From a phage: a stretch of DNA of 49,689 nt. Numbering within the stretch: the first letter of the stretch is position 1; each line of letters opens with the position of its first letter. The stretch lies in the sequence record NC_105788.1; one strand, 5' to 3'. The notes beneath the pieces were generated by a model. It made no database searches and was not told the origin of the DNA. It worked only from the letters and a program-made list of their open reading frames with translations. This document shows, piece after piece, positions 45 to 49,537 of this stretch. Both the position numbers and the translations under genes were made by a program.

Positions 45-749
45 ATGAAGTTGATTTGGTCCCTATTCGACGGTTCCGGTCTTGCAGGTCATGAACTGGC
101 TAAGCAAGGTCACAAGGTGATGTGCTTCAACTTTGACGGAGCCGATCACGGAGATTATGCAAAGTACAATGCCCGAGTGGAGCATCCGAACATTGAGTAT
201 GTGAACGTGTTCATTGACGCAGCGTTTGAGCGTGATGCTATCGCTGGCGTGTATGGCAAGCCGGATTTCATTATGGCCTTCCCGCCGTGCACTGACCTAG
301 CTGTTAGTGGTGCCGCTCACTTCGCAAGAAAGCGTGAACGCGATCCGTTATTCCAGGAGAAGGCTGTTGCCACCGCCCGGATTGCTGCGAACATTGGCGA
401 TAGCCTGGGCGGGACTTACATCATTGAGAATCCGGTAAGCGTCCTGTCGTCTGCGTGGAGAAAACCAAATCACTCCTTCAATCCCTGGGAGTATGGCGGC
501 TATCTTCCTGAGAATGACTCACACCCCTGGTTCCCGATGTATATTGCGCCGCGCGATGCTTACCCGAAGAAAACTTGTCTGTGGACCTCTGACGATTTTG
601 TCATGCCTGAAAGAAAACCTGTAAGCCTGCCTGACGGGTACTCTGCACAGCACAGCAAGCTAGGCGGCAAGTCTGCCAAAACTAAACTGATACGCTCTCT
701 GTCGCCCAGGGGATTTTTTAAAGCGATCGCAAATAGCACTTTTTGTTAA
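45..749 (+). CDS. DNA (cytosine-5)-methyltransferase-like protein (short orphan MTase)
   Basis: ATG with AAGGAG RBS 8 nt upstream; N-terminal LFDGSG (motif I, FxGxG), FPPC (motif IV Pro-Cys), IIENP (motif VI ENV-like); last codons ANSTFC-stop are encoded by the conserved box. Confidence 0.55.
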   Translation: MKLIWSLFDGSGLAGHELAKQGHKVMCFNFDGADHGDYAKYNARVEHPNIEYVNVFIDAAFERDAIAGVYGKPDFIMAFPPCTDLAVSGAAHFARKRERDPLFQEKAVATARIAANIGDSLGGTYIIENPVSVLSSAWRKPNHSFNPWEYGGYLPENDSHPWFPMYIAPRDAYPKKTCLWTSDDFVMPERKPVSLPDGYSAQHSKLGGKSAKTKLIRSLSPRGFFKAIANSTFC

Positions 750-752
750 AAC
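733..752 (+). promoter_or_regulatory. conserved box ATAGCACTTTTTGTTAAAAC, followed by hairpin-free spacer, CATAAT and conserved leader TACCTCATCGAAACGAGA
   Basis: one of about 25 copies of the box; overlaps stop codon of upstream gene. Confidence 0.6.
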
Positions 753-810
753 TCGATCGGTGTGATTTGGCATAATTACCTCATCGAAACGAGATTGAGG
801 AAAAACAAAA

Positions 811-996
811 ATGGCACGTCGCATCACTAAAGACCTTAAAGTTCTGAACAAAGAAAACGTAGTTAAGATCCTGGTTATTTGGGGATACAGCGAAGAGTCA
901 GCAAAGCAGAAGGTCGATGCTGGTTATGACCTGGCTATCAAAGCAATGCCTAACGACGACGCTAAAGGTATTGCAAACTACGTATCTTTCTTCTAA
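811..996 (+). CDS. hypothetical small protein (61 aa)
   Basis: ORF track; ATG 811 preceded by GAGG; sits between two box cassettes. Confidence 0.5.
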   Translation: MARRITKDLKVLNKENVVKILVIWGYSEESAKQKVDAGYDLAIKAMPNDDAKGIANYVSFF

Positions 997-1011
997 TTAA
1001 CGGGCCAGAAA

Positions 1012-1197
1012 ATGAAAACAAAATTAGTTCATAAATCAGAGATCAAGATCGGCGATACTGTGATTCACAACGGAGAGCTTAAAACTGTTGGTAAGGAGTC
1101 GATAACCAAAGATGAATTTATGGGTCTATTGTTGTTCGGCGACTCCTATCGACTTGGTTACAAAATGGTTGAGCTTGTTGAGGATGTAAAATTCTAA
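1012..1197 (+). CDS. hypothetical small protein (61 aa)
   Basis: ORF track; stop immediately followed by box. Confidence 0.5.
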   Translation: MKTKLVHKSEIKIGDTVIHNGELKTVGKESITKDEFMGLLLFGDSYRLGYKMVELVEDVKF

Positions 1198-1217
1198 ATA
1201 GCACTTTTTGTTAAAAC
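1198..1217 (+). promoter_or_regulatory. conserved box ATAGCACTTTTTGTTAAAAC (start of a 65-bp cassette nearly identical to the one upstream of the Dam gene)
   Basis: sequence identity to other copies; followed by CATTAT and TACCTCATCGAAACGAGA leader. Confidence 0.6.
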
Positions 1218-1279
1218 TGCCGGAATGGAATCTGGCATTATTACCTCATCGAAACGAGATACACATCAGGAGCAAGAAA

Positions 1280-1615
1280 ATGAAATACGAAAATCGCGGT
1301 AACGAAATCATCAAAATCGAAAACGGCGTTGAGTACATCATGGTTGCTTGCAAGGTTAACGGAATGGACTCATTCGTTTGGGAAGAAATCAAAACTGAAG
1401 ACAAAGCAGCTAAATTCCTGACCTGTGTTAATCAGCCTGATATGGAACGCGATACCTTCACTCGTTACGGTAAATATGAAATCGTTCGCGAGACTTCCTG
1501 CTTCTGGTGGGTCAAGCCTAACAGCCAGTACAAATTCCCGCGCAAAATCAGCAAGCGCACTATGCGCGAATCTGGCTTCAAGAAAGCATACGCCGCCGAG
1601 TTTGACATTGATTAA
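1280..1615 (+). CDS. hypothetical protein (111 aa)
   Basis: internal ATG of ORF 1208..1615 preceded by CAGGAG RBS; upstream part of ORF is the box cassette. Confidence 0.55.
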   Translation: MKYENRGNEIIKIENGVEYIMVACKVNGMDSFVWEEIKTEDKAAKFLTCVNQPDMERDTFTRYGKYEIVRETSCFWWVKPNSQYKFPRKISKRTMRESGFKKAYAAEFDID

Positions 1616-1634
1616 TAGCACGAATTGCTAAACG
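1615..1634 (+). promoter_or_regulatory. conserved box ATAGCACGAATTGCTAAAC followed by hairpin CCCCGA..TCGGGG and TATAGT
   Basis: box copy overlapping stop TAA of upstream gene. Confidence 0.6.
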
Positions 1635-1689
1635 CCCCGAGTGAGATCGGGGTATAGTTAACACATCAACCAATCAGGAGAATCAACAG

Positions 1690-1920
1690 ATGGCAATTAA
1701 ACACCCCGGGCTGAAGAAGGCAATTCAGCGCGCCAATGATGAGGGATTCATTGTCTACAGAACGCATTACGGTCACATGGGTGGCTTGAAAGAGCATCAT
1801 ACAAAGATTGAGCTTGTCGACTTGTGGGAGGATTACGATACATTCCAGTATATCGCCACGTCTGACGTAGAAGCGCAAGTGAAATACATCAACGACACAA
1901 TTGATAGTTTCAGAGGGTAA
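1690..1920 (+). CDS. hypothetical protein (76 aa)
   Basis: ATG preceded by AACCAATCAGGAG conserved RBS block. Confidence 0.55.
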   Translation: MAIKHPGLKKAIQRANDEGFIVYRTHYGHMGGLKEHHTKIELVDLWEDYDTFQYIATSDVEAQVKYINDTIDSFRG

Positions 1921-1924
1921 TTAT

Positions 1925-2296
1925 ATGTTTAAACAATTCGTAGACCTGGACTTCTCAGCCAGCACGGCAATCCAGACTGACGAGAAAGAAAGCGTAGCGA
2001 TCGAGAACATCGCGCGCAAGATTTACAACAAGCAAGAGAAGGCCGTGAGAGCCGCTCTAAGCGCTTATTATGGTGTAAGTGATGCAATGGAGTGCGTTAA
2101 CCGCGTAACGCGCGTGGTGGACCGTTTGGGTGTGTCTAGTTTCGTCGATAAAGACACTGGAGAGGTAATCATCCAGCTAAACAACCCATCTATGCGTACT
2201 GAGTTAGGCAATATTGCACTGTGGGGAGTTGCTAACTATTCAATCACCGTCAACTCATGTGTAGCGGATCGTGTTAAGGAGGCATTGTATGAATGA
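1925..2296 (+). CDS. hypothetical protein (123 aa)
   Basis: ATG at 1925 with AGAGGG RBS; ORF track 1901..2296 begins at a TTG. Confidence 0.5.
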   Translation: MFKQFVDLDFSASTAIQTDEKESVAIENIARKIYNKQEKAVRAALSAYYGVSDAMECVNRVTRVVDRLGVSSFVDKDTGEVIIQLNNPSMRTELGNIALWGVANYSITVNSCVADRVKEALYE

Positions 2297-2489
2297 TAAT
2301 ATTTACCGCGTAGTTGCGATCTCACGCAAAACGCAAAAGAGTGTGATCGCTTACATGGGTAGTAGCGCCATTGAAGCTACGGATGCCTTCGAATTATTGA
2401 AGAACAACGAGGGATTTATGAACACGTTCCGCGTTCGACTTGAGCGCCTCGAACCTGTTATCATTGATGAAGCGCGAAAGTTATCCTGA
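2289..2489 (+). CDS. hypothetical protein (66 aa)
   Basis: ATG at 2289 with AAGGAGG RBS; 8-nt overlap with upstream gene. Confidence 0.5.
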   Translation: MNDNIYRVVAISRKTQKSVIAYMGSSAIEATDAFELLKNNEGFMNTFRVRLERLEPVIIDEARKLS

Positions 2490-2505
2490 CTGGTTAGGGG
2501 GAATA

Positions 2506-2979
2506 ATGAACCATACTTACAAAATCACAACGAAGTCACCGAAGATTAACGGAAGCACGGTTGCGGCACTAAATAACGCGGCGGCAATTCACGAGAAAAA
2601 CATCATGGAGCGCGTTAAGGCGGCGGTAGGCCGATTCTACGGAATCAACGCAGACATTGCCGACAGCAAACGACTGTTCAAGTATGTGCCAGGCCATCCA
2701 TATAGCCGGATGATTGATATTAAGCACGACAAAGAGCTTGTTAGAATCGGATCGCTTGGCGTTGACGAGTTCGACCACAGCATTAACCTAGTTACGGCAT
2801 ATCAAACGTTGTTAGAATCGGATCGCTTGGCGTTGACGAAAAGCATGATTTGGATTCACACCTTCTACACCGGAAAATTTAACAGCGTTATTCATAAGAG
2901 AGTTTACGAAAGCTACTCTGAAGCTAATAAACAGCATGAAGTTTTAGGTGGAACGCTTAAAGCATATATTCCGGCATAA
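2506..2979 (+). CDS. hypothetical protein (157 aa)
   Basis: ATG 2506 after AGGGGG RBS; contains a 31-bp perfect direct repeat. Confidence 0.5.
   Translation: MNHTYKITTKSPKINGSTVAALNNAAAIHEKNIMERVKAAVGRFYGINADIADSKRLFKYVPGHPYSRMIDIKHDKELVRIGSLGVDEFDHSINLVTAYQTLLESDRLALTKSMIWIHTFYTGKFNSVIHKRVYESYSEANKQHEVLGGTLKAYIPA
2738..2839 (+). repeat. 31-bp perfect direct repeat (TTGTTAGAATCGGATCGCTTGGCGTTGACGA) at about 2738-2768 and 2809-2839
   Basis: read directly; copies 71 bp apart so they are translated in different frames. Confidence 0.7.
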
Positions 2980-2999
2980 ATAGCACGAATTGCTAAAGA
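2980..2999 (+). promoter_or_regulatory. conserved box ATAGCACGAATTGCTAAAGA
   Basis: box copy directly after stop of 2506..2979. Confidence 0.6.
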
Positions 3000-3057
3000 C
3001 ATGCTATCGGGGGTGATATATATTACTCCCACACCAAACGAAACAAAGGAATCAAAA

Positions 3058-3282
3058 ATGAGCATTAAAGTTGAGAATATCATCAAGCACCTGAACGCGA
3101 AAGGTCGTGTAGTTATCAAAATGGATAAGTCTTCCGGTTTTATTTCAATGACGGTAACTAAGTCCCGTAACGGTAATAACGTTATCGGCAGTACGCCAGG
3201 CTCGCGCTTAGTAAATGCAACAGATGCGGATGTGCGCGCTACGCTTGAGTCTAACTCAATTTACATTAATTCATGGAGTTGA
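3058..3282 (+). CDS. hypothetical protein (74 aa)
   Basis: ATG 3058 after AAAGGA RBS (internal start of ORF 3001..3282). Confidence 0.5.
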   Translation: MSIKVENIIKHLNAKGRVVIKMDKSSGFISMTVTKSRNGNNVIGSTPGSRLVNATDADVRATLESNSIYINSWS

Positions 3283-3495
3283 TTGATGGAGCGGGATAAT
3301 TTCTAGACTCGTTATTTTGCCGCTCTTGATGCTGGGCTTAGCGCGGAATGGTGTATCAAGGTTGCGTATAAAGAAATTACGCTTGACGACGCGCTAGGGA
3401 ATATGGATATGGACGCGGAGAGTGAATATAATCCCGGCTTCGAGATGCCTGGTGATGATATTGATGAGGACGACGACGATTATATTCCCTGGTAA

Positions 3496-3515
3496 ATAGC
3501 ACGATTTGTTAATAT
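3496..3515 (+). promoter_or_regulatory. conserved box variant ATAGCACGATTTGTTAATAT
   Basis: box copy after an unannotated acidic open frame. Confidence 0.5.
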
Positions 3516-3575
3516 TGCCGTAAGGTCATTTGATAAAGTGGCCTTATTCAAGATAACCAATCAGGAGCGAACGCA

Positions 3576-3992
3576 ATGAAAACCATTAAACTTAAATGCA
3601 CTTCAGCAGACAAAATCACAGGATTCGAAGTAAACAATCTGTATAAAGGTCGTGAGCGCTATGATGGCACTCGCGAAGTAAAGTTAAAATGCGGTAAGTA
3701 TTTAAAACTTGAAAAGCATGATGAATTACAGATTCACGGATCTGATGAAATCTTCTTCGCGAAGTTCACCGAGTTGAAAACAAAGACGCTCAAGTGCACC
3801 GGACTTGACCATCGCAACCCGATGAAAAAATCATTCAAAGTTGGCAAGCGTTATCAGGTAGAAAGCGGTCGCGCTCTTGGTGGCGTAGCTGGTTACATCT
3901 TTGATGAAGATGGATATCGCTGGACCCTGTTTCGCGAAGAGGTTGGTTTTAGTATCGCAGACGGCACAACCTTTGAGGCCAAATACTTATAA
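3576..3992 (+). CDS. hypothetical protein (138 aa)
   Basis: ATG preceded by AACCAATCAGGAG block. Confidence 0.55.
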   Translation: MKTIKLKCTSADKITGFEVNNLYKGRERYDGTREVKLKCGKYLKLEKHDELQIHGSDEIFFAKFTELKTKTLKCTGLDHRNPMKKSFKVGKRYQVESGRALGGVAGYIFDEDGYRWTLFREEVGFSIADGTTFEAKYL

Positions 3993-3995
3993 CCA

Positions 3996-4015
3996 ATAGC
4001 ACTTTTTGCTAAACG
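3996..4015 (+). promoter_or_regulatory. conserved box ATAGCACTTTTTGCTAAACG
   Basis: box copy after stop of 3576..3992. Confidence 0.6.
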
Positions 4016-4068
4016 CGTGTACCATTGGCGGTGTATCATTCACACCGTCAACAAAGGAGTTTATTGTG

Positions 4069-5637: not shown

Positions 5638-5641
5638 TAAT

Positions 5642-6049: not shown

Positions 6050-6161
6050 GCAAGGATTACTTAGCCTACTGCTCACTTCGATGAGGGCCAATAACGACGG
6101 TGAGCACAATCTTTGCGATCAGGATGGGGAGTTGCTACTTCACGTCAAAAGGTACAAATAG
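5961..6161 (+). CDS. hypothetical protein (66 aa)
   Basis: ATG after GGAG RBS; stop TAG lies inside a box copy, as for many other genes. Confidence 0.45.
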   Translation: MKNCLANVETLIDRNVELCARLQLTKEEFEQGLLSLLLTSMRANNDGEHNLCDQDGELLLHVKRYK

Positions 6162-6177
6162 CACTTTTTGTTAAAAC
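6158..6177 (+). promoter_or_regulatory. conserved box ATAGCACTTTTTGTTAAAAC followed by hairpin CCCGAT..ATCGGG, TATATT and TTCATCGAAACGAAACG leader
   Basis: box copy. Confidence 0.6.
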
Positions 6178-6238
6178 ACCCGATCTCGCATCGGGTATAT
6201 TTGTTTCATCGAAACGAAACGACCTGAAGGAAAACATC

Positions 6239-7867: not shown

Positions 7868-7921
7868 GATATATCCTCTTTGTTTTCGTTGTGGTTACTA
7901 TACCCGAATCCCTTCGGGCGT

Positions 7922-7939
7922 CTTTATCAATTAGTGCGA
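7922..7939 (-). promoter_or_regulatory. degenerate box copy (GCACTAATTGATAAAG) followed by hairpin CCCGAA..TTCGGG and TATAGT
   Basis: resembles box cassettes; overlaps stop codon of 7931..9082. Confidence 0.4.
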
Positions 7940-9082
7940 TCCTGTCATTTCTGGACGATATATGAAACGACCGATTTCCCCAAACTGCTTATCGTAAACA
8001 ATTACCGCCGCCTGGCGATACGATCGCCACCCTCCGCGTGCTGCGTATGCATCTTTCGCGCCTAACTGGCCGTGTACTTCATCAATACCAAGCGAGTGCT
8101 CAGTGATTGTCTGGTGATGCCAGTGACCACTATGAGTATACACATACTTGCTCTCGCCGAAGTCTGATCGGAAATCTGCCGCCATTGCTGCAAGTCTCGT
8201 ATCTGCCTTCTTCATAGTGTGACCGTGAGTGTATCCCAACAAAGTATTTCCCCAACGAGTCTTATGCAGAATCATAGGACTAACATCAACGAATACTCGC
8301 GGCTCGTCTTCATAATATGCCGACATTGCAGCTCGCAGCCAAATCATCCCAGACTGATCGTGGTTCCCTTCGATAACCTGGACCTCGACTTCTTTGTGTT
8401 TCATAAGCATTTTGTCGATGGCGCGACGCACAGAACGAATCGCTACATGCACCAATTTCGCATATCGTGAATCCTGATCCAGAACGTGACCGCTTGCCGG
8501 GGTAACAGCGTCAAGGCCGTCAGAGTGAAGGAAGTCGCCACCGATTAACAGAACAGCCTTCTCTGCGTTCGGCGCAATATCGATCGCGTAATTAAAGAAG
8601 TCGCTAAGCACTTTTTCCGCTACGTCGGTGGAATAGTTCTCACCGCATTCATGCTTATGAGCAAGCGCGCCAATATGGAGATCGAATACCGGATAGAGTG
8701 CCAGCTTACCCATCGCTGTCGTAAGCCCTTGCGAGGTTAGTAGCTCGGTTGGCTTTGCTCGCGGCAGGTCTTCACAGAATGCAATACGCGCCGCTTCCAT
8801 CATTGCCGCAATCTTCTCACGGTCCTGATCGGTTTTAACCCAGCGCACTACCTCGGTCCCATCTCCGCGAATCATCGTTGATGTGCCTTTTACCATGAAT
8901 CCTTCCGGTACGTTCTTAGCAACATGCTCGTTACCGTGGAAGTGGCCTTCTTTTGCCAATTTTGCGTGGCGAGCTTCAACCGTGCGAATGTGCATACCGT
9001 ACTTTTCCGCGATCTCGCGAAGTGTAAGTCCGTTCATGCGTTCTTCGATAAGTTGCTCGGTAGTGATTTTAGATTGTGACAT
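7931..9082 (-). CDS. HTH domain fused to calcineurin-like metallophosphoesterase (Mre11/SbcD-like nuclease or PPP-type phosphatase)
   Basis: N-terminal helix-turn-helix-like segment (LTLREIAEKYGMHIRTVEARHAKL); metallophosphoesterase motifs DLHIG, GGDFLHSD, GNHD, GHTMKK, GHWHH; AAGGA RBS. Confidence 0.65.
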   Translation of the reverse strand: MSQSKITTEQLIEERMNGLTLREIAEKYGMHIRTVEARHAKLAKEGHFHGNEHVAKNVPEGFMVKGTSTMIRGDGTEVVRWVKTDQDREKIAAMMEAARIAFCEDLPRAKPTELLTSQGLTTAMGKLALYPVFDLHIGALAHKHECGENYSTDVAEKVLSDFFNYAIDIAPNAEKAVLLIGGDFLHSDGLDAVTPASGHVLDQDSRYAKLVHVAIRSVRRAIDKMLMKHKEVEVQVIEGNHDQSGMIWLRAAMSAYYEDEPRVFVDVSPMILHKTRWGNTLLGYTHGHTMKKADTRLAAMAADFRSDFGESKYVYTHSGHWHHQTITEHSLGIDEVHGQLGAKDAYAARGGWRSYRQAAVIVYDKQFGEIGRFIYRPEMTGSH

Positions 9083-9160: not shown

Positions 9161-9562
9161 TCATGCCACAGCCTTTAACCAGAATCCTAGATCTGAAGAT
9201 TTAAACTCAACCAGTTTTCCATTAACCTCAAGCATCATACTGTTTCTACCTGGTGAGTAATAACCTATATGCAACTCTTGCTCGATCCCAATAGTGCAAA
9301 GCACATTAACGAAGTCAGGAGGCAACCAATCAGAGAAAGGGATTTTCTTAACCTGCTTCTTTCCGATCCATATGGTCTGGTAGTCATCTAAGTTAATGTT
9401 TAAGCCTGGAAGACTTGTTGCTCTTTGCTGTTTTTCGTTCTCGCTCAATTCTCTTTCCTTCTTCACGATAAAATTCAAGTGATGGGGTAGCTGGCACTCT
9501 ATGCATTTTTCTCGGCATATCTTCCATAAATGAAATCTTTCCGTTTGAGATAATGCTAACAT
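9161..9562 (-). CDS. C-terminal frame of a frame-disrupted gene (hypothetical)
   Basis: protein-like ORF with no credible RBS at its own ATG; overlaps 9393..9665 by 170 nt in another frame. Confidence 0.3.
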   Translation of the reverse strand: MLALSQTERFHLWKICREKCIECQLPHHLNFIVKKERELSENEKQQRATSLPGLNINLDDYQTIWIGKKQVKKIPFSDWLPPDFVNVLCTIGIEQELHIGYYSPGRNSMMLEVNGKLVEFKSSDLGFWLKAVA

Positions 9563-9665
9563 CCTTTATATCGAAATATTTTGCTATTAGTGCTATATCG
9601 TCTGAGATTCCGCATTCCTTTGCGTGCTCCCACACTTCGCGCTTACCTTTCTTTTTTATCAGCAT
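9393..9665 (-). CDS. N-terminal frame of a frame-disrupted gene (hypothetical)
   Basis: good GGAGAAA RBS at 9665 start; 3' part looks like out-of-frame readthrough (KR-rich). Confidence 0.35.
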   Translation of the reverse strand: MLIKKKGKREVWEHAKECGISDDIALIAKYFDIKDVSIISNGKISFMEDMPRKMHRVPATPSLEFYREEGKRIERERKTAKSNKSSRLKH

Positions 9666-9852: not shown

Positions 9853-9908
9853 CTTCTGATTCCTCATTTCGTTTCTATGAAATAACTATACCCGACTTTC
9901 GCCGGGTA

Positions 9909-9928
9909 GTTTTAGCAATTAGTGCTGT
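9909..9928 (-). promoter_or_regulatory. box variant (AGCACTAATTGCTAAAAC) followed by hairpin TACCCG..CGGGTA and TATAGT
   Basis: box-like sequence overlapping stop of 9919..10170. Confidence 0.45.
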
Positions 9929-10880: not shown

Positions 10881-10931
10881 CTTTAGTCCTCTCGTTTCGG
10901 TGAGATAATAATGCCAGATTCCATTCCAGCA

Positions 10932-10951
10932 GTTTTAACAAAAAGTGCTAT
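10932..10951 (-). promoter_or_regulatory. conserved box (minus strand reads ATAGCACTTTTTGTTAAAAC); cassette nearly identical to 1198-1265
   Basis: box copy overlapping TAG stop of VRR-NUC gene, upstream of Dam. Confidence 0.6.
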
Positions 10952-13393: not shown

Positions 13394-13422
13394 TTGAATC
13401 GTTGTATCGTTTACGCTATAAT
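13394..13422 (+). promoter_or_regulatory. sigma70-type promoter (TTGAAT-17 bp-TATAAT) for Cro-like gene
   Basis: perfect -10 hexamer and 17-bp spacer read directly; a box copy lies at about +12 to +31. Confidence 0.55.
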
Positions 13423-13440
13423 ACACGACATACAGTAAAC

Positions 13441-13460
13441 GTTTTTAGCAAAAAGTGCTA
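13441..13460. promoter_or_regulatory. conserved box in inverted orientation (GTTTTTAGCAAAAAGTGCTA) between promoter and RBS
   Basis: operator-like position immediately downstream of predicted start site. Confidence 0.55.
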
Positions 13461-13473
13461 CAGGAGAATTAAG

Positions 13474-13926
13474 ATGAATATGCAACGTATCGCAGAATCA
13501 ACTGGTGAAATCGATAAACGTCACATTAATGGTAACAACGGAACGCGACGCGGTAAAGATAAAAAGCCTCGCCAACGCTGCGGTTTCTATATCCACAAAG
13601 AAGAAACACGCGCCGGACTGAGAGCGCGACTTGACGCTCTTATTGAATATTACGGCGGCCCAGCGGCCTGCGCAAAGGCTCTGAAAGTTAGCAATCAGAC
13701 CGTGCAAGGCTGGAAAGAGCGCAATATGATTTCGTGGCAAGGTGCTGAAGCTGCACATCGTGCTTACCGTCGTCAGGGTTGTAAAGGATTCCGCGCCGCA
13801 TGGTTGCGATTCGACCTCAAGTTTGACGGTAACGGCAAGTGTCTAGAGAAACGATGCAAGAACAAGAAGTTTATGCGAGTGGTGAGGAAGGAAGATATCG
13901 GGACGACCAATAGCATTTTTAGTTAA
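13474..13926 (+). CDS. Cro/C1-type HTH DNA-binding protein
   Basis: HTH segment GGPAACAKALKVSNQTVQGWKE; CAGGAG RBS; last codons TNSIFS-stop encoded by a box copy. Confidence 0.55.
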   Translation: MNMQRIAESTGEIDKRHINGNNGTRRGKDKKPRQRCGFYIHKEETRAGLRARLDALIEYYGGPAACAKALKVSNQTVQGWKERNMISWQGAEAAHRAYRRQGCKGFRAAWLRFDLKFDGNGKCLEKRCKNKKFMRVVRKEDIGTTNSIFS

Positions 13927-13929
13927 AAC
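13910..13929 (+). promoter_or_regulatory. conserved box variant ATAGCATTTTTAGTTAAAAC
   Basis: box copy overlapping 3' end of Cro-like gene. Confidence 0.5.
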
Positions 13930-13934
13930 AAACG

Positions 13935-13970
13935 ACGCGTAGCGGGGTAACATCCTTCTACGCGTTTTTT
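13935..13970 (+). terminator. intrinsic terminator (ACGCGTAG ... CTACGCGT + T6)
   Basis: 8-bp stem followed by T-run. Confidence 0.55.
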
Positions 13971-14950: not shown

Positions 14951-14979
14951 TTGCAAGACCAGTACCACAATGATAAAAT
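14951..14979 (+). promoter_or_regulatory. sigma70-type promoter with extended -10 (TTGCAA-17 bp-TGaTAAAAT) for tail fibre gene
   Basis: read directly; box copy overlaps predicted start site. Confidence 0.55.
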
Positions 14980-14983
14980 CAGT

Positions 14984-15003
14984 GCTTAGCAATTCGTGCT
15001 ATT
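14984..15003. promoter_or_regulatory. conserved box in inverted orientation (GCTTAGCAATTCGTGCTATT) at predicted +1 region
   Basis: box copy between -10 and RBS. Confidence 0.55.
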
Positions 15004-17380: not shown

Positions 17381-18028
17381 CTATTCGAAGTTGGTTATTG
17401 ATTGAGATTGTACAGGTTTCGCGCTCGTTGCTTCAACCTGTTTTTTCTGTTCCGGTTGCGCCGGGCGAATGCCGCGAGCTTTTCCGATCTCAAACTTAGC
17501 CTTCAGTGCGTTGTAGTGATCCTGAATGATTGACTTGCTCGCCGTGTCAGTCTGGCGATAAGCATTGGCCCAAACATCCTTCAGTGACTCGATATCTTCG
17601 CACGCATCAAGTTCTTTCTTCCAGTCCTTGACGGATTTCACCGCAAGCTGCGCGTCGTCGTCACTTTGGCTAATTCCCAGCGCGGCGGCTAGAGAGTAAC
17701 GTCGAGCATACGTCATTGCGGAACCTACGCCTTGAGGATCTCGTTTTGCAATCGGCATCATCATGAAGAATTTGGCCCATTGCCCGGATTTGTGAATCAG
17801 CATAGTTTCAAGGTGGAATGTTGTTTCCGTGCTGGTATCAAGCATTGATTGCAGGATCATGATATCGTTATCGGTTAACGCCGGACTAACTGCCGCCATC
17901 ATTGCGTCAAGAGTTGCGTATGAATTTTTCAGGTGATTGTTTTTAGCGTCCTTCTTTGCCTTCGCGAATTTATTGCGAGCGTTGAACAGTGCCGGAAGGA
18001 TTTCATTGGTTTCTGGTGATAATTGCAT
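17381..18028 (-). CDS. erf: ERF-family single-strand annealing protein
   Basis: GSAMTYARRYSLAAALGI motif typical of ERF proteins; start moved to internal ATG preceded by ACCAATCAGGAG. Confidence 0.65.
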   Translation of the reverse strand: MQLSPETNEILPALFNARNKFAKAKKDAKNNHLKNSYATLDAMMAAVSPALTDNDIMILQSMLDTSTETTFHLETMLIHKSGQWAKFFMMMPIAKRDPQGVGSAMTYARRYSLAAALGISQSDDDAQLAVKSVKDWKKELDACEDIESLKDVWANAYRQTDTASKSIIQDHYNALKAKFEIGKARGIRPAQPEQKKQVEATSAKPVQSQSITNFE

Positions 18029-18102
18029 CTTAACTTCTCCTGATTGGTGTATGAGGTGCATTATAACACCTCACTAATTATTTGTTTAGCTATTTGTGCC
18101 GT

Positions 18103-24402: not shown

Positions 24403-24450
24403 GATGTTTACCTTTTTGTGCTATTTATCGGTAGACTCATTATACAGGCG

Positions 24451-24475
24451 AAAAAAAACCCGCGCAAGGCGGGTT
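24451..24475 (-). terminator. intra-operon hairpin plus T8 between gpI-like and gpJ-like genes
   Basis: AACCCGC-CTTGC-GCGGGTT + T8 on minus strand. Confidence 0.5.
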
Positions 24476-30592: not shown

Positions 30593-30612
30593 ATAGCACT
30601 TTTTGTTAAAAT
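30593..30612. promoter_or_regulatory. conserved box (ATAGCACTTTTTGTTAAAAT, inverted relative to gene) directly abutting the gpG RBS
   Basis: box copy inside late operon. Confidence 0.5.
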
Positions 30613-30684
30613 TTAATCGAATAAAGTTGATAAGATGATTTTACAGAAATGAATAAGGGGGCGCAAGCCCCCTATGGATGGTAT

Positions 30685-34350: not shown

Positions 34351-34356
34351 TCAATA

Positions 34357-34376
34357 ATAGCACTTTTTGTTAAAGC
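34357..34376. promoter_or_regulatory. conserved box (ATAGCACTTTTTGTTAAAGC, inverted relative to local genes)
   Basis: box copy between decoration-like gene and capsid gene. Confidence 0.5.
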
Positions 34377-34393
34377 GTCAAAGTGTTTTTATG

Positions 34394-41048: not shown

Positions 41049-41063
41049 AAATCCATCCTCTTT

Positions 41064-41089
41064 GTTTAACATTTAGTGCTATTTTACCA
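41064..41089 (-). promoter_or_regulatory. box copy (ATAGCACTAAATGTTAAAC) overlapping an extended -10 (TGGTAAAAT) upstream of TerS
   Basis: read directly on minus strand. Confidence 0.45.
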
Positions 41090-41101
41090 TATTGCAGGCA
41101 T

Positions 41102-41123
41102 AAAAAAACCCGCCGAAGCGGGT
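41102..41123 (-). terminator. intrinsic terminator (CCCGC-TTCG-GCGGG + T7) at end of minus-strand early arm
   Basis: GC hairpin plus T7. Confidence 0.65.
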
Positions 41124-42837: not shown

Positions 42838-42893
42838 TTCGATTTTCTCTCTTCGTTGTCGATGAGGTAACTATATCAAGTCACCCCACCGAC

Positions 42894-42913
42894 GTTTTAG
42901 CAATTCGTGCTAT
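42894..42913 (-). promoter_or_regulatory. conserved box (minus strand ATAGCACGAATTGCTAAAAC)
   Basis: box copy overlapping TAG stop of kinase gene. Confidence 0.6.
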
Positions 42914-43482: not shown

Positions 43483-43483
43483 G

Positions 43484-44202: not shown

Positions 44203-44266
44203 GATTTATTCCTCTGATTGGTTGCTTAACTCAACGAAGGGCATTCTAACAAATGCCCTTGAGCAA

Positions 44267-44286
44267 GTTTTAGCAATTCGTGCTAT
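44267..44286 (-). promoter_or_regulatory. conserved box (minus strand ATAGCACGAATTGCTAAAAC) followed by hairpin AAGGGCA..TGCCCTT
   Basis: box copy after TAA stop of upstream gene. Confidence 0.6.
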
Positions 44287-44732: not shown

Positions 44733-44786
44733 GAGTGTTCCCTCGTTTTTTGGTGTAGGGGAATCATAGCGCATTCCCCTTGATAG

Positions 44787-44806
44787 GTTTTAGCAATTCG
44801 TGCTAT
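44787..44806 (-). promoter_or_regulatory. conserved box (minus strand ATAGCACGAATTGCTAAAAC) followed by hairpin AGGGGAATG..CATTCCCCT
   Basis: box encodes C-terminal TNSTNC-stop of upstream gene. Confidence 0.6.
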
Positions 44807-45008
44807 TCGTTTTAATAGTGATGCAAAAATAATTTTTTAAGCACGTCACCACGCGCGCTGAATCGACTTGTGGGAGCCTTAAAATTTCGTGGACCAATTG
44901 CACTGCCGACACCTCAGATTTGTAGTAGTGTGCGATTCTTGAGGTATTTGGGCGCATTCCTTCCACTGCGTCACGCGCTGCATCTTCTGTTGTCATGATA
45001 GTAGCCAT
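44790..45008 (-). CDS. hypothetical protein (72 aa)
   Basis: ORF track. Confidence 0.45.
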   Translation of the reverse strand: MATIMTTEDAARDAVEGMRPNTSRIAHYYKSEVSAVQLVHEILRLPQVDSARVVTCLKNYFCITIKTNSTNC

Positions 45009-45112
45009 AAAACACCCTTAAGAGATAATGTCAGGACCAGGAGGCAGAATAGCAACTCCTGAAATGATGGCGGCTCGTTATTCCAGTTGGAAAAGTCTGG
45101 CATAGTGTTTTC

Positions 45113-45148
45113 TCCAAAAGAAAGGGGAACCGTTCAGAGCCGATTCCC
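45113..45148 (-). terminator. hairpin plus T-run after 45157..45795 gene
   Basis: GGGGAATCGG..CCGTTCCCC followed by TTTCTTTT on minus strand. Confidence 0.45.
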
Positions 45149-45156
45149 CATTAAAA

Positions 45157-45795: not shown

Positions 45796-46079
45796 GGTCT
45801 AACCTTCCTGTAAGGCTTGATTGATAACATCACGTATTGCGTGAAGTCGCATTCTTGCTCGTCATAACCGCGATTGATGTATGGCGTCACGTCTGTAACA
45901 TCGGACACCCTTGCGTGAACTTCCCACCCGGTAAATTCGTCACGATCGAACTCGCGTAGCTCAAGGATATCACCAACCTGGAAGTTGCGGTCATTGACGC
46001 GGAACTCTGCCGTTTTGGTTCCGTTCATTACACCAATGAAATGTACCGGGGAGATTTTTAACTTATGAGTTTTGCTCAT
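45792..46079 (-). CDS. ASCH/PUA-like small protein (DUF3850-like)
   Basis: pattern KISPVHF..V..G.KTAEFR.NDR.FQVGD.L.L.E typical of ASCH-fold proteins (recalled, not searched). Confidence 0.5.
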   Translation of the reverse strand: MSKTHKLKISPVHFIGVMNGTKTAEFRVNDRNFQVGDILELREFDRDEFTGWEVHARVSDVTDVTPYINRGYDEQECDFTQYVMLSIKPYRKVRP

Positions 46080-46269
46080 CTTTCTTTACCTCGAATGTCA
46101 CGTTCCAGAATTTATTGCCGCATGAGTGATAGATTACGTCCTGAGACGTGAGTTCGTGCAATGCGTGCCCGATAATCTCCATGCGGTCGTTCGGTGCCAG
46201 TCCGCGAAGCGATTCACGAAGGCGTGAGGCCTTGTCGTAAATCTGCCACTGAGTTAGTCGTGTAGCCAT
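46063..46269 (-). CDS. hypothetical protein (68 aa)
   Basis: internal ATG preceded by AACCAATCAGAGGA. Confidence 0.45.
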   Translation of the reverse strand: MATRLTQWQIYDKASRLRESLRGLAPNDRMEIIGHALHELTSQDVIYHSCGNKFWNVTFEVKKDEQNS

Positions 46270-46334
46270 AGCTGATTCCTCTGATTGGTTGCCTTGCTTC
46301 AATAAGGCCACTATATCAAATGGACTTGCGGAAG

Positions 46335-46353
46335 GTTTAGCAATTCGTGCTAT
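46335..46353 (-). promoter_or_regulatory. conserved box (minus strand ATAGCACGAATTGCTAAAC)
   Basis: box copy overlapping stop of a small unannotated ORF. Confidence 0.6.
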
Positions 46354-46499
46354 CGTTTAACGCACATCGTTTTTACTTCGTATCCGAACGGCTTGTTCTC
46401 TGAAATCACCTCCCGAGCCTTGTTGCATGATTGTTGGCTTTCCATGTATACGTGTTCTGGCCCGGTACTCATCAAGATAATCAAAATCCACGCCGCCAT
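46350..46499 (-). CDS. small protein with hydrophobic N-terminus (49 aa, below ORF-track cutoff)
   Basis: manual translation MAAWILIILMSTGPEHVYMESQQSCNK...; GAGGTGA RBS; TAATG overlap with upstream gene; stop TAG inside box; coordinates approximate. Confidence 0.4.
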   Translation of the reverse strand: MAAWILIILMSTGPEHVYMESQQSCNKAREVISENKPFGYEVKTMCVKR

Positions 46500-47005
46500 T
46501 ATTTCACCTCATAGCGTACAAGTGTTCCGCGCTTAACGCTTATTTCACCTGATACCGTTTTGTGCTTAAAGCTGCCGTAATGCAATAGGAGAATCACTAC
46601 ATCATCATGCACCTCAATAGTTTTAGGTGTGGCGGTAATCTCGATCCAGGATTCGCTATCAAGTTGAACGCCCTTTAGCGTAGCGCTCAATGGCATGTTC
46701 TCGATCTGAGTGCATTGTAACATCGGTTTAATTTCTGGCTTTGCGGGGTGGAAGATGGATCGATCAGTTTTCCAACCATCATACTTTCCGTACGAATCCT
46801 GACTACCACTAATAATGTAATGGTAATCCTTCTTGTCTGAGTTTTCAGGATTTACTTCATTGTGCCGATTGATAAACCAATCCAACTTAAGCTGAGACAC
46901 CTCATCAGTGGCCCACTTGCCTTTATCTTCACTGGTGAATGTAATTTCACCGCAACCCAGGCTGATAAATTTAATCGGGAATTTTACGTCTTCTAATTTT
47001 AACAT
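46499..47005 (-). CDS. hypothetical protein (168 aa)
   Basis: ORF track; AGAGGAA RBS. Confidence 0.5.
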   Translation of the reverse strand: MLKLEDVKFPIKFISLGCGEITFTSEDKGKWATDEVSQLKLDWFINRHNEVNPENSDKKDYHYIISGSQDSYGKYDGWKTDRSIFHPAKPEIKPMLQCTQIENMPLSATLKGVQLDSESWIEITATPKTIEVHDDVVILLLHYGSFKHKTVSGEISVKRGTLVRYEVK

Positions 47006-47060
47006 GATACTTTCCTCTTAGTGGTTTATGTGGGGATTATACCAGTCAGGCCAAATCCCC

Positions 47061-47080
47061 CTTTAACAATTCGTGCTTAG
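47061..47080 (-). promoter_or_regulatory. box variant (minus strand CTAAGCACGAATTGTTAAAG)
   Basis: box-like copy overlapping stop of upstream gene. Confidence 0.5.
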
Positions 47081-47565
47081 TAAACTAACTCGCACTCAAT
47101 ATCGAACGGTTCTGGATCTCGATGGAAGAAGCAGAGCGCCTCTTTATTCATACCGCCGACAAATCCAACTGCTCGCAACTGCTCATCGTTAACGTATGCC
47201 AGGTTGCTAGTGATTTCTTCAAAATCAACGATAACCGGGAACGTGCGGTTCTCATACCCCGAGCGCATCGGGTATCCGCCACTATTGAGAAGTCGAACCT
47301 TGCGCGGCTTAGGATTTGACTGGACTTCCCACTCGAAGAAGAACATCGTTCCGTCTTTCTCATTGAAGTCTGCCGGACCGACTACCTGGCTAACCGAAAG
47401 TCCATAATCCAGATCGTACGCGCCAGCTTTTACCAGATCGTCAACCTTAACACGGTAGCCTCCAGTACTGGAATCACACTTCACCGCATCAACCACGATA
47501 GGGTCCGCTTCCAGATCTCGGGTAAATCCCTTGTAACCGCCAGTGCAAATTAATTTGATTTTCAT
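47077..47565 (-). CDS. hypothetical protein (162 aa)
   Basis: ORF track; GAGGA RBS. Confidence 0.5.
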   Translation of the reverse strand: MKIKLICTGGYKGFTRDLEADPIVVDAVKCDSSTGGYRVKVDDLVKAGAYDLDYGLSVSQVVGPADFNEKDGTMFFFEWEVQSNPKPRKVRLLNSGGYPMRSGYENRTFPVIVDFEEITSNLAYVNDEQLRAVGFVGGMNKEALCFFHRDPEPFDIECELVY

Positions 47566-47620
47566 GCTATCGTCCTCGCTCGTTGTCGATGGGGTTACTA
47601 TATCGCAACCCCGGAATTTA

Positions 47621-47640
47621 TTTTTAACAAAAAGTGCTAT
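47621..47640 (-). promoter_or_regulatory. conserved box (minus strand ATAGCACTTTTTGTTAAAAA)
   Basis: box copy overlapping TAG stop of upstream gene. Confidence 0.6.
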
Positions 47641-48107
47641 TTGGTGAGATACTTTACCTCACTGCCTGACATCATATTCCAACCATCATCAAAGAATACG
47701 CTATAGCATGTTGCCGAACGCTGGCGAATCTTAGATACAGTGCGCCACACCTTACGACCCGAGTAACCAGTCAGCACACGCATCCCTGGCAATAGCTCAC
47801 ACGACTTTCTCACCTTGATAGTCACATCAGCATCAAGTTCGAACGACTCAAGGCGAACCGGATTGACCATCTCAAACATTCGCATAACTTCGTGATCTTC
47901 CTTCCACTCGCAGCCGCCGCTAGCTTTAACGGCTTCAATGAAATTACTCAGTTTGTCAGTGAGCAGTTCGTCATCGTACGCCTCAATTGATATGACCGTG
48001 TAGTGAGTGTACGTATGCCAGTGCGAGCCGGTTTTATGCTCAAACGCAAAGAATGACATTTCGCCATCAAGCTCATCTTTAGCAAGAAATACGGTAATTG
48101 TCGCCAT
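47637..48107 (-). CDS. hypothetical protein (156 aa)
   Basis: ORF track; GGAGG RBS. Confidence 0.5.
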   Translation of the reverse strand: MATITVFLAKDELDGEMSFFAFEHKTGSHWHTYTHYTVISIEAYDDELLTDKLSNFIEAVKASGGCEWKEDHEVMRMFEMVNPVRLESFELDADVTIKVRKSCELLPGMRVLTGYSGRKVWRTVSKIRQRSATCYSVFFDDGWNMMSGSEVKYLTK

Positions 48108-48109
48108 GA

Positions 48110-48304
48110 TTAAGCCTCCGCAAAGTAAGTGTTAAAGCCTTTGAGTTTATAGTCGCTGCCTACGCGCACCACGTTCCAGGTGAGGCCCGAGTGATATGCA
48201 ACCATATCCTCAAGGTCGATCGTGATTTCCGTTCCTTTCTTGAACAAACCCTTTTCATGAGTTGAGTCTCGCTGAACAACCACTACGTCAAGTTGCGTTT
48301 CCAT
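48110..48304 (-). CDS. hypothetical protein (64 aa)
   Basis: ORF track; AAGGAA RBS. Confidence 0.45.
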   Translation of the reverse strand: METQLDVVVVQRDSTHEKGLFKKGTEITIDLEDMVAYHSGLTWNVVRVGSDYKLKGFNTYFAEA

Positions 48305-48359
48305 CTTCGTTTCCTTATTCGTTGTCGATGGGATAACTATACCAGGTTATCCCGATCCG

Positions 48360-48379
48360 GTTTTAACAAAAAGTGCTAT
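48360..48379 (-). promoter_or_regulatory. conserved box (minus strand ATAGCACTTTTTGTTAAAAC)
   Basis: box copy after first gene of minus early arm. Confidence 0.6.
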
Positions 48380-48393
48380 TTACCTCTCAGCGC

Positions 48394-48909
48394 TTACAGT
48401 CCACACTTTTCGATATGCGCTTTCATCTGGCGCACGATCTCATTTACATCACGAACCATTAACTCGCTGTCGCTCAGCTTGCTAACATCAACATCAAACG
48501 AGTCCAGGCAATCAGCCAAGCTAACTTTTTTCCGGCTGCGGCGCTTCTTCACCGGAACCTCTTCGTCGGTAACGATAACGGTTATCATCGTGATTGCCGC
48601 GTCATTCCGGCCTACCTTCACCTTTGCCACCTTGCCATACTTGCAAAAGTGTCGGGTAATGATCGGAGTGATGAAAGCGGACTTGAATCTCTTCTCTACC
48701 TCCCCCTGGTTCTGGTCAACCCATCCGGCAGCGGCAGATTCAAGATCGGCATCGCTTACCTCCTGGCCCCGAAAGTAGAATCGCGCTGCTTCTAGGGCCA
48801 TATCATCAGCCACGAAAGAGAACTCATTCATGCCTTTGTCGCGGTACATTGCATCGCAGGTTAGTCGAATCATGTCGGTGATTTTTAATTCCTGATTGGT
48901 ATTGCTCAT
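48394..48909 (-). CDS. hypothetical protein (171 aa), first gene of minus-strand early arm
   Basis: ORF track; directly downstream of AT-rich regulatory hub. Confidence 0.5.
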   Translation of the reverse strand: MSNTNQELKITDMIRLTCDAMYRDKGMNEFSFVADDMALEAARFYFRGQEVSDADLESAAAGWVDQNQGEVEKRFKSAFITPIITRHFCKYGKVAKVKVGRNDAAITMITVIVTDEEVPVKKRRSRKKVSLADCLDSFDVDVSKLSDSELMVRDVNEIVRQMKAHIEKCGL

Positions 48910-48929
48910 AATATGCTCTCTTTGTCTAT

Positions 48930-49300
48930 TGGTGTGTAAATGGTGTCATAACATGTCAACAATTGCCATTGTGACAGAGCGACGTAGAGCTGTCAACGAC
49001 TGCAAGCCAATTTTAAGCCGTGTAATATTTGTCTAGCCGTCTAGAGTCACTATAGAAATATATAGCCCTCAAAAAAGTACTGTATATATAAACATGCAGA
49101 TAGAAATATGCCAGCAGTACGCTAGACAATGTAAGACGGCTATACACAACTATTACAATATAATTATCTATATATATAAATAAAAAAAACACTATATATA
49201 TTATATATATACATATATCTATATGTCTATTGTGATGCGTCACAGTGCGTAATTTTGTCACAAGTGCGATTCTAGACAAATATTACAGTCGTGACAAGTT
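48930..49300. promoter_or_regulatory. AT-rich divergent control region with inverted repeats (TAATATTTGTCTAG ... CTAGACAAATATTA) and repeated TGTCAC/GTGACA motifs
   Basis: read directly; separates divergent early transcription units. Confidence 0.5.
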
Positions 49301-49312
49301 AAAGTGTAATCG

Positions 49313-49332
49313 ATAGCACGTTTTGCTAAAAA
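49313..49332 (+). promoter_or_regulatory. conserved box ATAGCACGTTTTGCTAAAAA
   Basis: box copy. Confidence 0.55.
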
Positions 49333-49517
49333 TGGAGATGACTACCAGGCGAACCGGGTAACACTAAATCCTCCCTCTCACAATCATTGCATTCTAAGCA
49401 ACAATCACATCAACAGTTGCACACCATGCAACAATCGCATTTCATCATTCGAGATCAATCGGGATCGCAATTATTCCAGATATTCCATTGCTGGTGGAAT
49501 AATGAGCAACTATTGGA

Positions 49518-49537
49518 ATAGCATTTTTTGCTAACGA
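49518..49537 (+). promoter_or_regulatory. conserved box ATAGCATTTTTTGCTAACGA followed 23 nt later by TATGAT and AACCAATCAGAGGA RBS block
   Basis: box copy. Confidence 0.55.

Follow-up and report, generated by a model that had tools for sequence, protein, structure and literature searches.

What is the function of a 20-bp box that recurs at the gene boundaries of a T1-like phage, and which protein would read it? The question is raised by sequence record NC_105788.1, a stretch of 49,689 nucleotides analysed at its full length and called here the window, which is the nearly complete genome of a T1-like siphovirus (Tunavirus, Drexlerviridae) with ~92% identity to Shigella phage SH6 and related coliphages. 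From a control region near 49.2-49.6 kb, its two early arms run in opposite directions, and its late structural genes lie on the minus strand at about 20-41 kb. We found that the box is a consensus marbox, that is, a putative asymmetric site of the host activators MarA, SoxS, and Rob (and of RamA in Klebsiella and Salmonella), and, judging from the sequence evidence set out below, we consider it probable that host activators of the MarA/SoxS/Rob type activate the box promoters of T1-like phages.

The repeat itself has already been published. In the 2024 re-annotation of phage TLS (PMC11447400), 21 copies of the same 21-nt direct repeat, aaATAGCACnnnTTGnTAAAA, were described, lying ~76 nt upstream of start codons, oriented with transcription, divided into T, G, and A subtypes, and present also in T1, Rtp, and Rogue1. 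A stoperator, an enhancer site, or an UP element was guessed as its role, which was listed among the unanswered questions. The TLS repeats are the same element as the box of the window, but the TLS paper makes no link to the marbox, to a fixed -10 hexamer, or to hairpins, and all three links are drawn here. What is new is the super-consensus marbox placed in class II (once class I) promoter geometry and nested with a terminator-like hairpin.

The repeated box and the promoter layout around it

The box unit spans 20 bp and reads ATAGCAC-N3-TTGYTAAAAC. The original prediction had described about 25 copies with five nucleotides in place of the three; the repeat is real, with 28 copies counted between 733 and 49537 under relaxed criteria, far above chance, but the spacing had been mis-stated, and because of this the pattern ATAGCAC-N5-TTGYTAAAAC gives 0 matches even when 2 mismatches are allowed, the N5 spacing holding only between the half-sites TAGCA and TGCTA. 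With a free gap, TAGCAC-N(0-12)-TTGYTA, there are 19 matches against 0.14 expected by chance. In both early arms the orientation of the box is the direction of the flanking genes, and the stop codon of the upstream gene is usually abutted or overlapped by it, as TAA directly before the box, as TAG inside aTAGcac, or as TAA inside gcTAAaac. The ends of the open reading frames, compared with the box coordinates, thus bear out the position at gene ends that had been proposed, and likewise the coding of C-terminal residues by the box in three genes (45..749, 13402..13926, and 44790..45008).

In 22 of the 28 copies, the box is followed by a spacer and then by a TAnnnT-like -10 hexamer (TATAGT, TATAAT, CATAAT, TATCAT, and similar), often with TG upstream of it. 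The spacer is exactly 18 bp, with 17 or 19 bp in 3 of these 22 copies. All start sites given here are predicted from the -10 hexamer, with a C/A start 7 nt past it, and a ribosome-binding site and start codon stand 19-34 nt downstream of the predicted starts. The same layout is common to T1, TLS, Rtp, and Klebsiella phage KP36, the conservation in T1-like relatives having been named beforehand as the check to be made, and it is found in 405 distinct modules of relatives in the IMG/VR database. Among the matches listed in the IMG/VR scan, multi-copy contigs were seen only at about 47-53 kb, and the single box matches in other contigs look like chance.

A conservation profile was made from 94 sites pooled from five genomes (the window, T1, TLS, Rtp, and KP36) and aligned on the box. 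Positions 1-7 (ATAGCAC) are 93-100% conserved, positions 9-10 are A or T in 99-100%, positions 11-13 (TTG) reach 90-99%, and positions 15-18 (TAAA) 96-100%, while the spacer at positions 21-35 holds essentially no information. Downstream of it, conservation rises again at positions 36-37 (T 52%, G 81%, an extended -10), at positions 39-44 (T71 A87 T69 A60 A50 T81, in percent), and at positions 50-51 (C 62%, A 83%). The last pair places the predicted +1 at box position 51, so that the box spans -50 to -31 with its centre at -40.5. Such a profile is characteristic of sigma-70 promoters, here with a discriminator of 6 nt and transcription starting at C/A, and the strong bias of position and orientation agrees with the proposal that the box is a regulon-defining DNA element, putatively a protein site.

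No -35 hexamer is present in the modules, where the -35 position reads AAAACn. A TTGACA-like hexamer 16-18 bp from the -10, as in canonical sigma-70 promoters, is not what they contain, since TTGYTA lies 22 bp from the -10 and therefore too far for sigma region 4. An ordinary sigma-70 promoter was tried as a candidate and rejected, because a consensus scan misses every module and its overall counts equal those of shuffled sequence. The rigid 18-bp distance to the -10 holds while the intervening sequence is not conserved, and this indicates a geometry at the level of DNA, contrary to the RNA-level signal that had been offered as one explanation. The other explanation offered, a symmetric site for a dimer, is contradicted by asymmetric conservation across the same sites: only TAGCA/TGCTA is symmetric, TGTTA stands in 39% of the copies, and the flanks are asymmetric, given that positions 1 and 17 are both A, that C7 faces T11, and that A17 and A18 are 96-100% conserved although A, and not T, occupies the mirror positions -1 and -2. 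A weak GCA...TGC dyad is already present in the host marbox consensus.

The marbox and the host promoters that carry it

The original prediction had not recognised the box as a known operator or promoter, yet it is a perfect match to the published marbox, which has been defined as gcannwwntgnnaaa and as GCAHWWWWTGYYAAA, the latter being fitted exactly by the boxes of the TTT type. Searched with GCANNWWNTGNNAAA, which stands for the first of these patterns, the window gives 21 exact matches against 0.81 expected. With AYNGCACNNWNNRYYAAAY, which stands for the consensus AYnGCACnnWnnRYYAAAYn reportedly given by Martin and co-workers in 1999, it gives 22 matches with at most one mismatch, against 1.12 expected.

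A scoring matrix was built only from 87 sites for MarA/SoxS/Rob/RamA obtained by chromatin immunoprecipitation and sequencing (ChIP-seq) in Salmonella. The consensus of this host-site matrix, GCACTAATTGCTAAA, is identical to the window box at 9925(-), which takes the score of 18.6 out of a possible 18.6, and a score of 16 or more is reached by 23 sites of the window. With the 90th percentile of the true host sites as the lower limit, 0.05 sites are found in shuffled sequence. In the scan of other phages, T1, TLS, Rtp, and KP36 hold 11-17 such sites each and T7 holds 0, and on the same matrix the E. coli sites of micF, rob, and mar score 14.9, 14.2, and 12.9, respectively. MarA-type proteins are monomers with two different helix-turn-helix heads, and for this reason the asymmetric conservation of the box fits activators of this kind.

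The perfect marbox match together with a -10 hexamer at a fixed distance makes the layout that of a class II activator-dependent promoter. According to the class II rule for MarA-type activators, a forward marbox with its centre near -41 takes the place of the -35, for which no hexamer can be recognised, and the -10 is a normal one; this is what was found, with predicted start sites, for 22 copies of the window as well as for T1, TLS, Rtp, and KP36. The closest host counterpart is the E. coli micF promoter, a class II promoter dependent on MarA/SoxS/Rob/RamA, in which the marbox ACAGCACTGAATGTCAAAAC is followed by 18 bp, TAGAAT, and then +1; it shares with the phage modules the forward marbox ending in AAAAC, the 18 bp to the -10, the missing -35, and the centre near -41. 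The phage boxes differ from micF in their higher matrix score (16-18.6 versus 14.9), in their often extended -10, and in their number, 14-24 per 50-kb genome.

One copy follows the other rule. A class I marbox of MarA-type activators is reversed and clusters near -62 (or -72), in front of a promoter whose -35 is good, and the box at 49313-49332, the only one in the early region that lacks a forward -10, is likewise reversed and precedes a -35 by 15 bp, with its centre near -60.5 relative to the predicted +1. In E. coli marRAB, a reversed marbox stands 16 bp before the hexamers TTGACT-17-TATTAT, and its 14-nt core, TTTAGCAAAACGTG, is identical to that of the phage copy; a good -35 and a 17-bp spacer are common to both, whereas the gap to the -35 is 16 bp in mar and 15 bp in the phage, where there is only this single copy. 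The class I arrangement is kept in T1 even though the T1 hexamers have diverged to TTGATT and TATGAT. That both the class I and the class II rules are obeyed is not expected of a protein unrelated to MarA. A class I reading was also tried for the other non-standard boxes (15002, 30593, 34357) and rejected, as their implied starts fall inside or beyond start codons.

Other phages have comparable elements. In T4, the MotA box (TGCTTtA) is centred at -30, 11-13 bp from the -10, and requires the phage-encoded MotA and AsiA. The T4 middle promoters resemble the box modules in that an activator box above a good -10 replaces the -35 and bypasses sigma region 4, but here the box is centred at -40.5, has another sequence, ends 18 bp from the -10, and has no phage activator identified with it, 10 early proteins lacking a relevant Pfam match in a search for MotA/AsiA that was not exhaustive. 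The PeSL cassettes of T4-type phages (early promoter plus stem-loop), reportedly described by Arbiol and co-workers in 2010, are likewise a repeated unit of promoter and hairpin at the boundaries of small early genes; their promoters are ordinary sigma-70 early promoters, whereas in the present modules a marbox forms the upstream element and the hairpin lies within the promoter. The stoperators of mycobacteriophage L5 are similar as many asymmetric, oriented copies of one protein site, and the late copies of the window lie in comparable roadblock positions. L5 stoperators, in contrast, are bound by the repressor that a temperate phage encodes, and their placement relative to a -10 is not fixed, while most copies here are promoter elements of a virulent phage.

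Candidate readers of the box

In the mechanism that we propose, a host activator bound to the forward box, at about -50 to -31, would replace the -35 in the 22 class II copies and recruit sigma-70 RNA polymerase, transcription would start at the conserved A 7 nt past the -10, and each module stands before a short leader, followed by a single small block of genes, either early ones or ones for DNA metabolism. In the class I copy, the reversed box, centred near -61, would act from above a canonical -35/-10 early promoter, and in the five late-gene copies, which overlap putative late promoters or leaders, the same protein would block rather than help. We infer MarA, SoxS, and Rob as the binders because no phage homologue of them was found, because the box is invariant while the phage regulator varies, and because the named hosts of the related phages are almost all Enterobacteriaceae, which encode MarA/SoxS/Rob-type regulators. 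A profile and phmmer search for a MarA/SoxS/Rob homologue against the 868 six-frame open reading frames gave only noise (best E 0.31), and Pfam searches of 10 early or regulatory proteins gave no AraC-type match, only a weak P22_Cro/YdaS helix-turn-helix in the Cro-like regulator.

Several points weigh against activation by these host proteins. In a Keio single-knockout screen with the TLS-like phage LL5, tolC, lipopolysaccharide genes, secB, and ppiB were recovered, but not rob, marA, or soxS, and therefore no single one of these regulators is essential; redundancy among MarA, SoxS, and Rob, together with the strong extended -10s, could hide their effect in such a screen. Without stress, cells contain little MarA and SoxS, and most of the Rob is aggregated. 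The box is over-conserved for a marbox, with A3 and T11 at about 95% and position 14 nearly confined to C or T (53 C, 37 T, 3 G, and 1 A in the 94 sites, where host sites often have A), and this excess conservation may reflect a further constraint or another reader. For six of the copies, a role as class II promoter is not possible. In the literature we found no start-site map of any Drexlerviridae phage, the starts used here being predicted ones, and no paper linking marboxes or MarA/SoxS/Rob to phage promoters. Finally, two boxes flank a helix-turn-helix regulator that is specific to the family and has a sigma-70 promoter of its own.

This last point leads to a reader encoded by the phage itself, for which the likeliest candidate would be the conserved Cro-like regulator (13474-13926), made from its own sigma-70 promoter, activating box promoters and repressing others in a cascade from immediate-early to delayed-early genes, so that the likeness to the marbox would be convergence or mimicry. 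Both candidate regulators of the original prediction bear on it: the Cro-like protein still stands as a rival, and the helix-turn-helix phosphoesterase (7931-9082) is without a Pfam match. The Cro-like regulator occurs in every box-carrying genome and nowhere else, its homologues forming 80 loci, all at least 51% identical and all on Drexlerviridae-sized contigs; it is among the few genes with a canonical promoter, both in the window and in TLS (P57). The helicase-module box 13461-13442 covers +13..+32 of the divergent regulator transcript, beside the regulator ribosome-binding site, and this box in the regulator's own leader, one of the two that flank the regulator, would give autoregulation. 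The TAGCA-N5-TGCTA dyad would suit a helix-turn-helix dimer, and conservation above what a marbox requires also favours a phage reader. The dyad, however, leaves the asymmetric conservation, A17/A18, and C7 unexplained, and the box equals the host ChIP-seq consensus and follows the MarA-type orientation and position rules of class II and class I. The putative recognition helix of the regulator varies across lineages (NQTVQGW, LKTVWGW, PQAVEEW, IQVVQQW, TKVVTGW) while the box is constant, and an activator that accumulates during infection would increasingly repress the late promoters, which is the wrong direction for late genes. On this balance, we judge a phage-encoded reader unlikely, although it is the strongest of the rivals. 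Regardless of the reader, the -10 of the regulator (TATAAT, 13417-13422) overlaps the divergent -10 of the helicase module, and the two promoters should therefore exclude each other.

The box might also need no activator, being an intrinsic promoter element that boosts extended -10 promoters by an UP-like contact with the alpha subunit or as a displaced -35 (TTGYTA). Its place at -50 to -31 upstream of extended -10s, its A/T-rich centre, and its A-tract would suit this, an UP-like role was proposed by the TLS authors (PMC11447400), and a host knockout phenotype is not known. But the conserved G/C positions (GCAC and G13, with G4, C5, and G13 at 99-100% and C7 at 94%) and the GAA-type centre, which is not a T-tract, are unlike the A/T-only UP consensus at -40 to -60; a -35 displaced to 22 bp would be out of reach for sigma region 4, the standard sigma-70 scan finds none of the promoters, and the reversed copy at -61 and the late-promoter copies would be left unexplained, which makes an intrinsic element improbable in our estimation. 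We give hardly any credence to a box that acts in RNA, as a processing or termination-associated signal with the hairpin, or in genome architecture, as a boundary for the recombinational shuffling of cassettes. In favour of such a role, transcripts of the upstream gene always carry the box at their 3' end, and it is followed by a significant hairpin (z = -2.96, 388 modules). Terminators stand no more than about 60 nt away from the late-region copies, and the small genes that flank the box differ between relatives; moreover, a small UAGCA-N5-UGYUA stem in the RNA would retain a G-C or G-U pair with either C or T at position 14, and this preference may be a second constraint on the box. Nevertheless, the -10 distance is fixed at 18 bp while the hairpin position varies (3' ends peaking at 39 and 50), reversed copies would give a different RNA, and a role in recombination would be a by-product of sequence identity that leaves the marbox match unexplained.

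Returning to the host MarA/SoxS/Rob-type activators, a wider form of the same reading is possible, although we hold it to be doubtful: T1-like phages would run essentially their whole early and middle programme on host Rob, MarA, and SoxS (RamA in Klebsiella), and the loss of free activator would work as an early-to-late timer because the same sites sit on several late promoters. The activator could be lost by titration, as hundreds of replicating genomes would carry about 25 sites each, or, alternatively, by the decay of unstable MarA and SoxS after host shut-off. If such a timer were real, multidrug-resistant strains that overexpress mar/ram/sox would be better hosts for such phages, many of them (e.g. 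Webervirus) therapy candidates, and inducers such as salicylate or bile would modulate infection.

The reading of the box as a marbox regulon offers a concrete, testable mechanism for the question left open in the TLS work (PMC11447400). If true, this would stand as a clear example of a virulent phage whose promoters, some 20 of them, are tied to a host family of antibiotic- and stress-response regulators, and early phage expression would be linked to TolC, the receptor of TLS, and to the regulators behind AcrAB-TolC efflux. The reading would also predict an interplay of mar/ram/sox-type drug resistance, inducing drugs, and phage therapy with Drexlerviridae, and it would provide compact, portable cassettes of a terminator plus an activator-dependent promoter for engineering.

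Modules, hairpins, and late-gene copies

Positions of the box modules and related promoters in the window. Box and hexamer coordinates descend where the element itself lies on the minus strand; all +1 positions are predicted, and spacers without an entry are 18 bp in the class II modules.
Feature	Extent (strand)	Box	Hexamers and spacer	+1	Start codon	Remarks
Class II module	733..783 (+)	733-752	18 bp, tgg-CATAAT 771-776	783	ATG 811	
Class II module	1198..1248 (+)	1198-1217	tgg-CATTAT	1248	ATG 1280	spacer hairpin TGCCGGA..TCTGGCA
Class II module	1615..1665 (+)	1615-1634, GAA type	TATAGT	1665	ATG 1690	spacer hairpin CCCCGA..TCGGGG
Class II module	2980..3031 (+)	2980-2999	19 bp, TATATT	3031	ATG 3058	
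Class II module	3496..3546 (+)	3496-3515, weaker	tga-TAAAGT	3546	ATG 3576	-10 enclosed by hairpin
Class II module	3996..4046 (+)	3996-4015	TATCAT	4046	GTG 4066	helicase-like, 523 aa
Class II module	6158..6208 (+)	6158-6177	TATATT	6208	ATG 6239	terminator-like spacer hairpin 6178-6196
Class II module	7890..7940 (-)	7940-7921, TAA type	TATAGT	7890	ATG 7867	matrix score 18.4; upstream of lysis genes
Class II module	9546..9596 (-)	9596-9577, ATAGCACTAATAGCAAAATA	TAGCAT			weak or uncertain
Class II module	9878..9928 (-)	9928-9909	TATAGT	9878		core GCACTAATTGCTAAA, the host ChIP-seq consensus (18.6/18.6)
Class II module	10901..10951 (-)	10951-10932	tgg-CATTAT	10901	ATG 10880	upstream of dam
Class II module	13411..13461 (-)	13461-13442	TATTAT 13423-13418		GTG 13379	helicase gene
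Class II module	13910..13960 (+)	13910-13929	TAACAT	in hairpin 3' arm	GTG 13987	primase; box encodes C-terminus of Cro-like regulator; inside terminator, -10 in loop of CGCGTAG..CTACGCG+T6
Class II module	18053..18102 (-)	18102-18083, ACGGCACAAATAGCTAAACA	17 bp, TATAAT		likely ATG 18028	Erf-like gene; hairpin GTGAGGTG..CACCTCAT encloses -10
Class II module	42863..42913 (-)	42913-42894	tga-TATAGT	42863	ATG 42837	
Class II module	44236..44286 (-)	44286-44267	tgt-TAGAAT		ATG 44202	8-bp hairpin AAGGGCAT..ATGCCCTT encloses -10
Class II module	44756..44806 (-)	44806-44787	TATGAT		ATG 44732	hairpin AGGGGAAT..ATTCCCCT
Class II module	46303..46353 (-)	46353-46334	tga-TATAGT		ATG 46269	
Class II module	47029..47079 (-)	47079-47060, TAAGCAC variant	tgg-TATAAT		ATG 47005	
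Class II module	47590..47640 (-)	47640-47621	TATAGT		ATG 47565	hairpin GGGGTT..AACCCC ending at -1
Class II module	48329..48379 (-)	48379-48360	tgg-TATAGT		ATG 48304	hairpin GGGATAAC..GTTATCCC
Class II module	49518..49569 (+)	weaker, ATAGCATTTTTTGCTAACGA	19 bp, TATGAT	49569	ATG 49593	
Class I copy	49262..49332 (-)	49313-49332 on + strand, reversed	TTGTCA (49297-49292)-17-TAGAAT (49274-49269)	near 49262		
Cro-like regulator promoter	13394..13422 (+)		TTGAAT-17-TATAAT			canonical sigma-70; -10 overlaps helicase-module -10 back to back
Tail-fibre copy	14951..15002 (+)	14983-15002, reversed	TTGCAA-17-TGaTAAAAT (14951-14979)			putative late promoter; box at about -3..+17, operator-like
Gene J copy	24405..24444 (-)	24424-24405, degenerate	TGTATAAT, -10 at 24444-24439			putative late promoter after terminator; box in leader, contains ribosome-binding site
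Copy at 30593	30593..30643	30593-30612 (+)	+ strand TAAGAT at 18 bp			antisense into terminator
Gene 30571 leader	(-)	30593-30612, reversed	TGTAAAAT (30643-30638)			same copy as in the row above; box in leader, downstream of TGTAAAAT
Capsid-gene promoter	34354..34381 (-)	34357-34376, reversed	TTGACG-16-TATTAT			box fills spacer
terS copy	41063..41086 (-)	41082-41063	extended -10 TGgTAAAAT (41086-41081), putative			box directly before terS ribosome-binding site; -10 overlaps box start

In almost all modules, an inverted repeat lies between the box and the predicted +1; it was assessed by its folding energy against shuffles and against random windows. Over 42 nt (box positions 19-60), 388 distinct modules fold at -12.0 kcal/mol with z = -2.96, and 68% of them have z < -2, compared with -6.2 kcal/mol and z = -0.13 in random windows of the same phages (Mann-Whitney p 1.6e-63). 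The 3' ends of the hairpins peak at box position 39, where the stem ends as the -10 begins, and at position 50, where the stem encloses the -10 and ends at -1. Several hairpins of the position-39 type are annotated as rho-independent terminators in the T1 and KP36 records, and at TLS 35240, as at 13910 in the window, the -10 lies in the loop of a full terminator. Pairing can be kept while the sequence changes, AAGG..CCTT at window 3496 corresponding to AACG..CGTT at KP36 5770. Fixed-register covariation is weak (anti-diagonal sum 77, observed-minus-expected about 0.1), because the hairpin registers differ between modules. This variable hairpin accompanying the box probably acts in RNA: it would belong to the upstream transcript as a terminator or 3' stabiliser, while the new transcript, beginning inside or after the hairpin, would escape it. 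The only match of an Rfam scan (E <= 1) was to SraG, below threshold and in another part of the window.

The late-gene copies are lineage-specific, those of terS and J being missing in Rtp and KP36. The nearest host parallel to the capsid, terS, and tail-fibre promoters is the E. coli rob promoter, where the marbox also lies between or over the core hexamers and where Schneiders and Levy reportedly described repression in 2006. The late copies suggest that the same factor may repress the late promoters, repression here being deduced from the layout of copies that, unlike the named rob case, are lineage-specific. As a separate observation, the rob promoter has a forward marbox, AAAACACTGAATGCTAAAAC, 12 bp from TATTAT, and on the opposite strand ATAGCATTTTTTGCT, which overlaps the -10 and is identical to the opening 15 nt of two phage box variants, the one at 49518 in the window and DR18 in TLS. 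Putative late promoters without a -35 were also seen directly after intrinsic terminators, formed by the terminator T-run and TG(n)TAnAAT (terS, J, and gene 30571); this form, at 24439-24460, 30638-30660, and 41081-41105, is conserved in TLS, Rtp, and KP36.

Some minor observations concern the genes and sequences around the modules. Two conserved leader families begin at the predicted +1 (783, 1248, 6208, 10901, 42863, 47590, and 48329; also 1665, 49569, and the 30571 leader), and they may set mRNA stability or translation efficiency. The first, cATCGAAACGA / cATCGACAACGA, could form a small 5' hairpin (UCG-AAA-CGA), and the second, ATCAACCAATCAGAGGA, runs into the ribosome-binding site. For the Erf-like gene (window 18028-18061), the T1 record (31484) starts gene ST28 at an ATG inside the predicted -10 region (ATAATG), but the ATG 33 nt downstream, with the strong ribosome-binding site caggagaagttaagATG, fits the module architecture better. 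Among the T1-like records, 11 are labelled Campylobacter phage with host C. jejuni, which is outside the enterobacterial host range of the family, and these are probably mislabelled or contaminant sequences. Lastly, a (TA)n-rich block at 49150-49215 (ctatatatataaataaaaaaaacactatatatattatatatatacatatatctatatg), conserved in relatives, adjoins the immediate-early promoters and could be bent DNA, an origin, or a packaging-related element.

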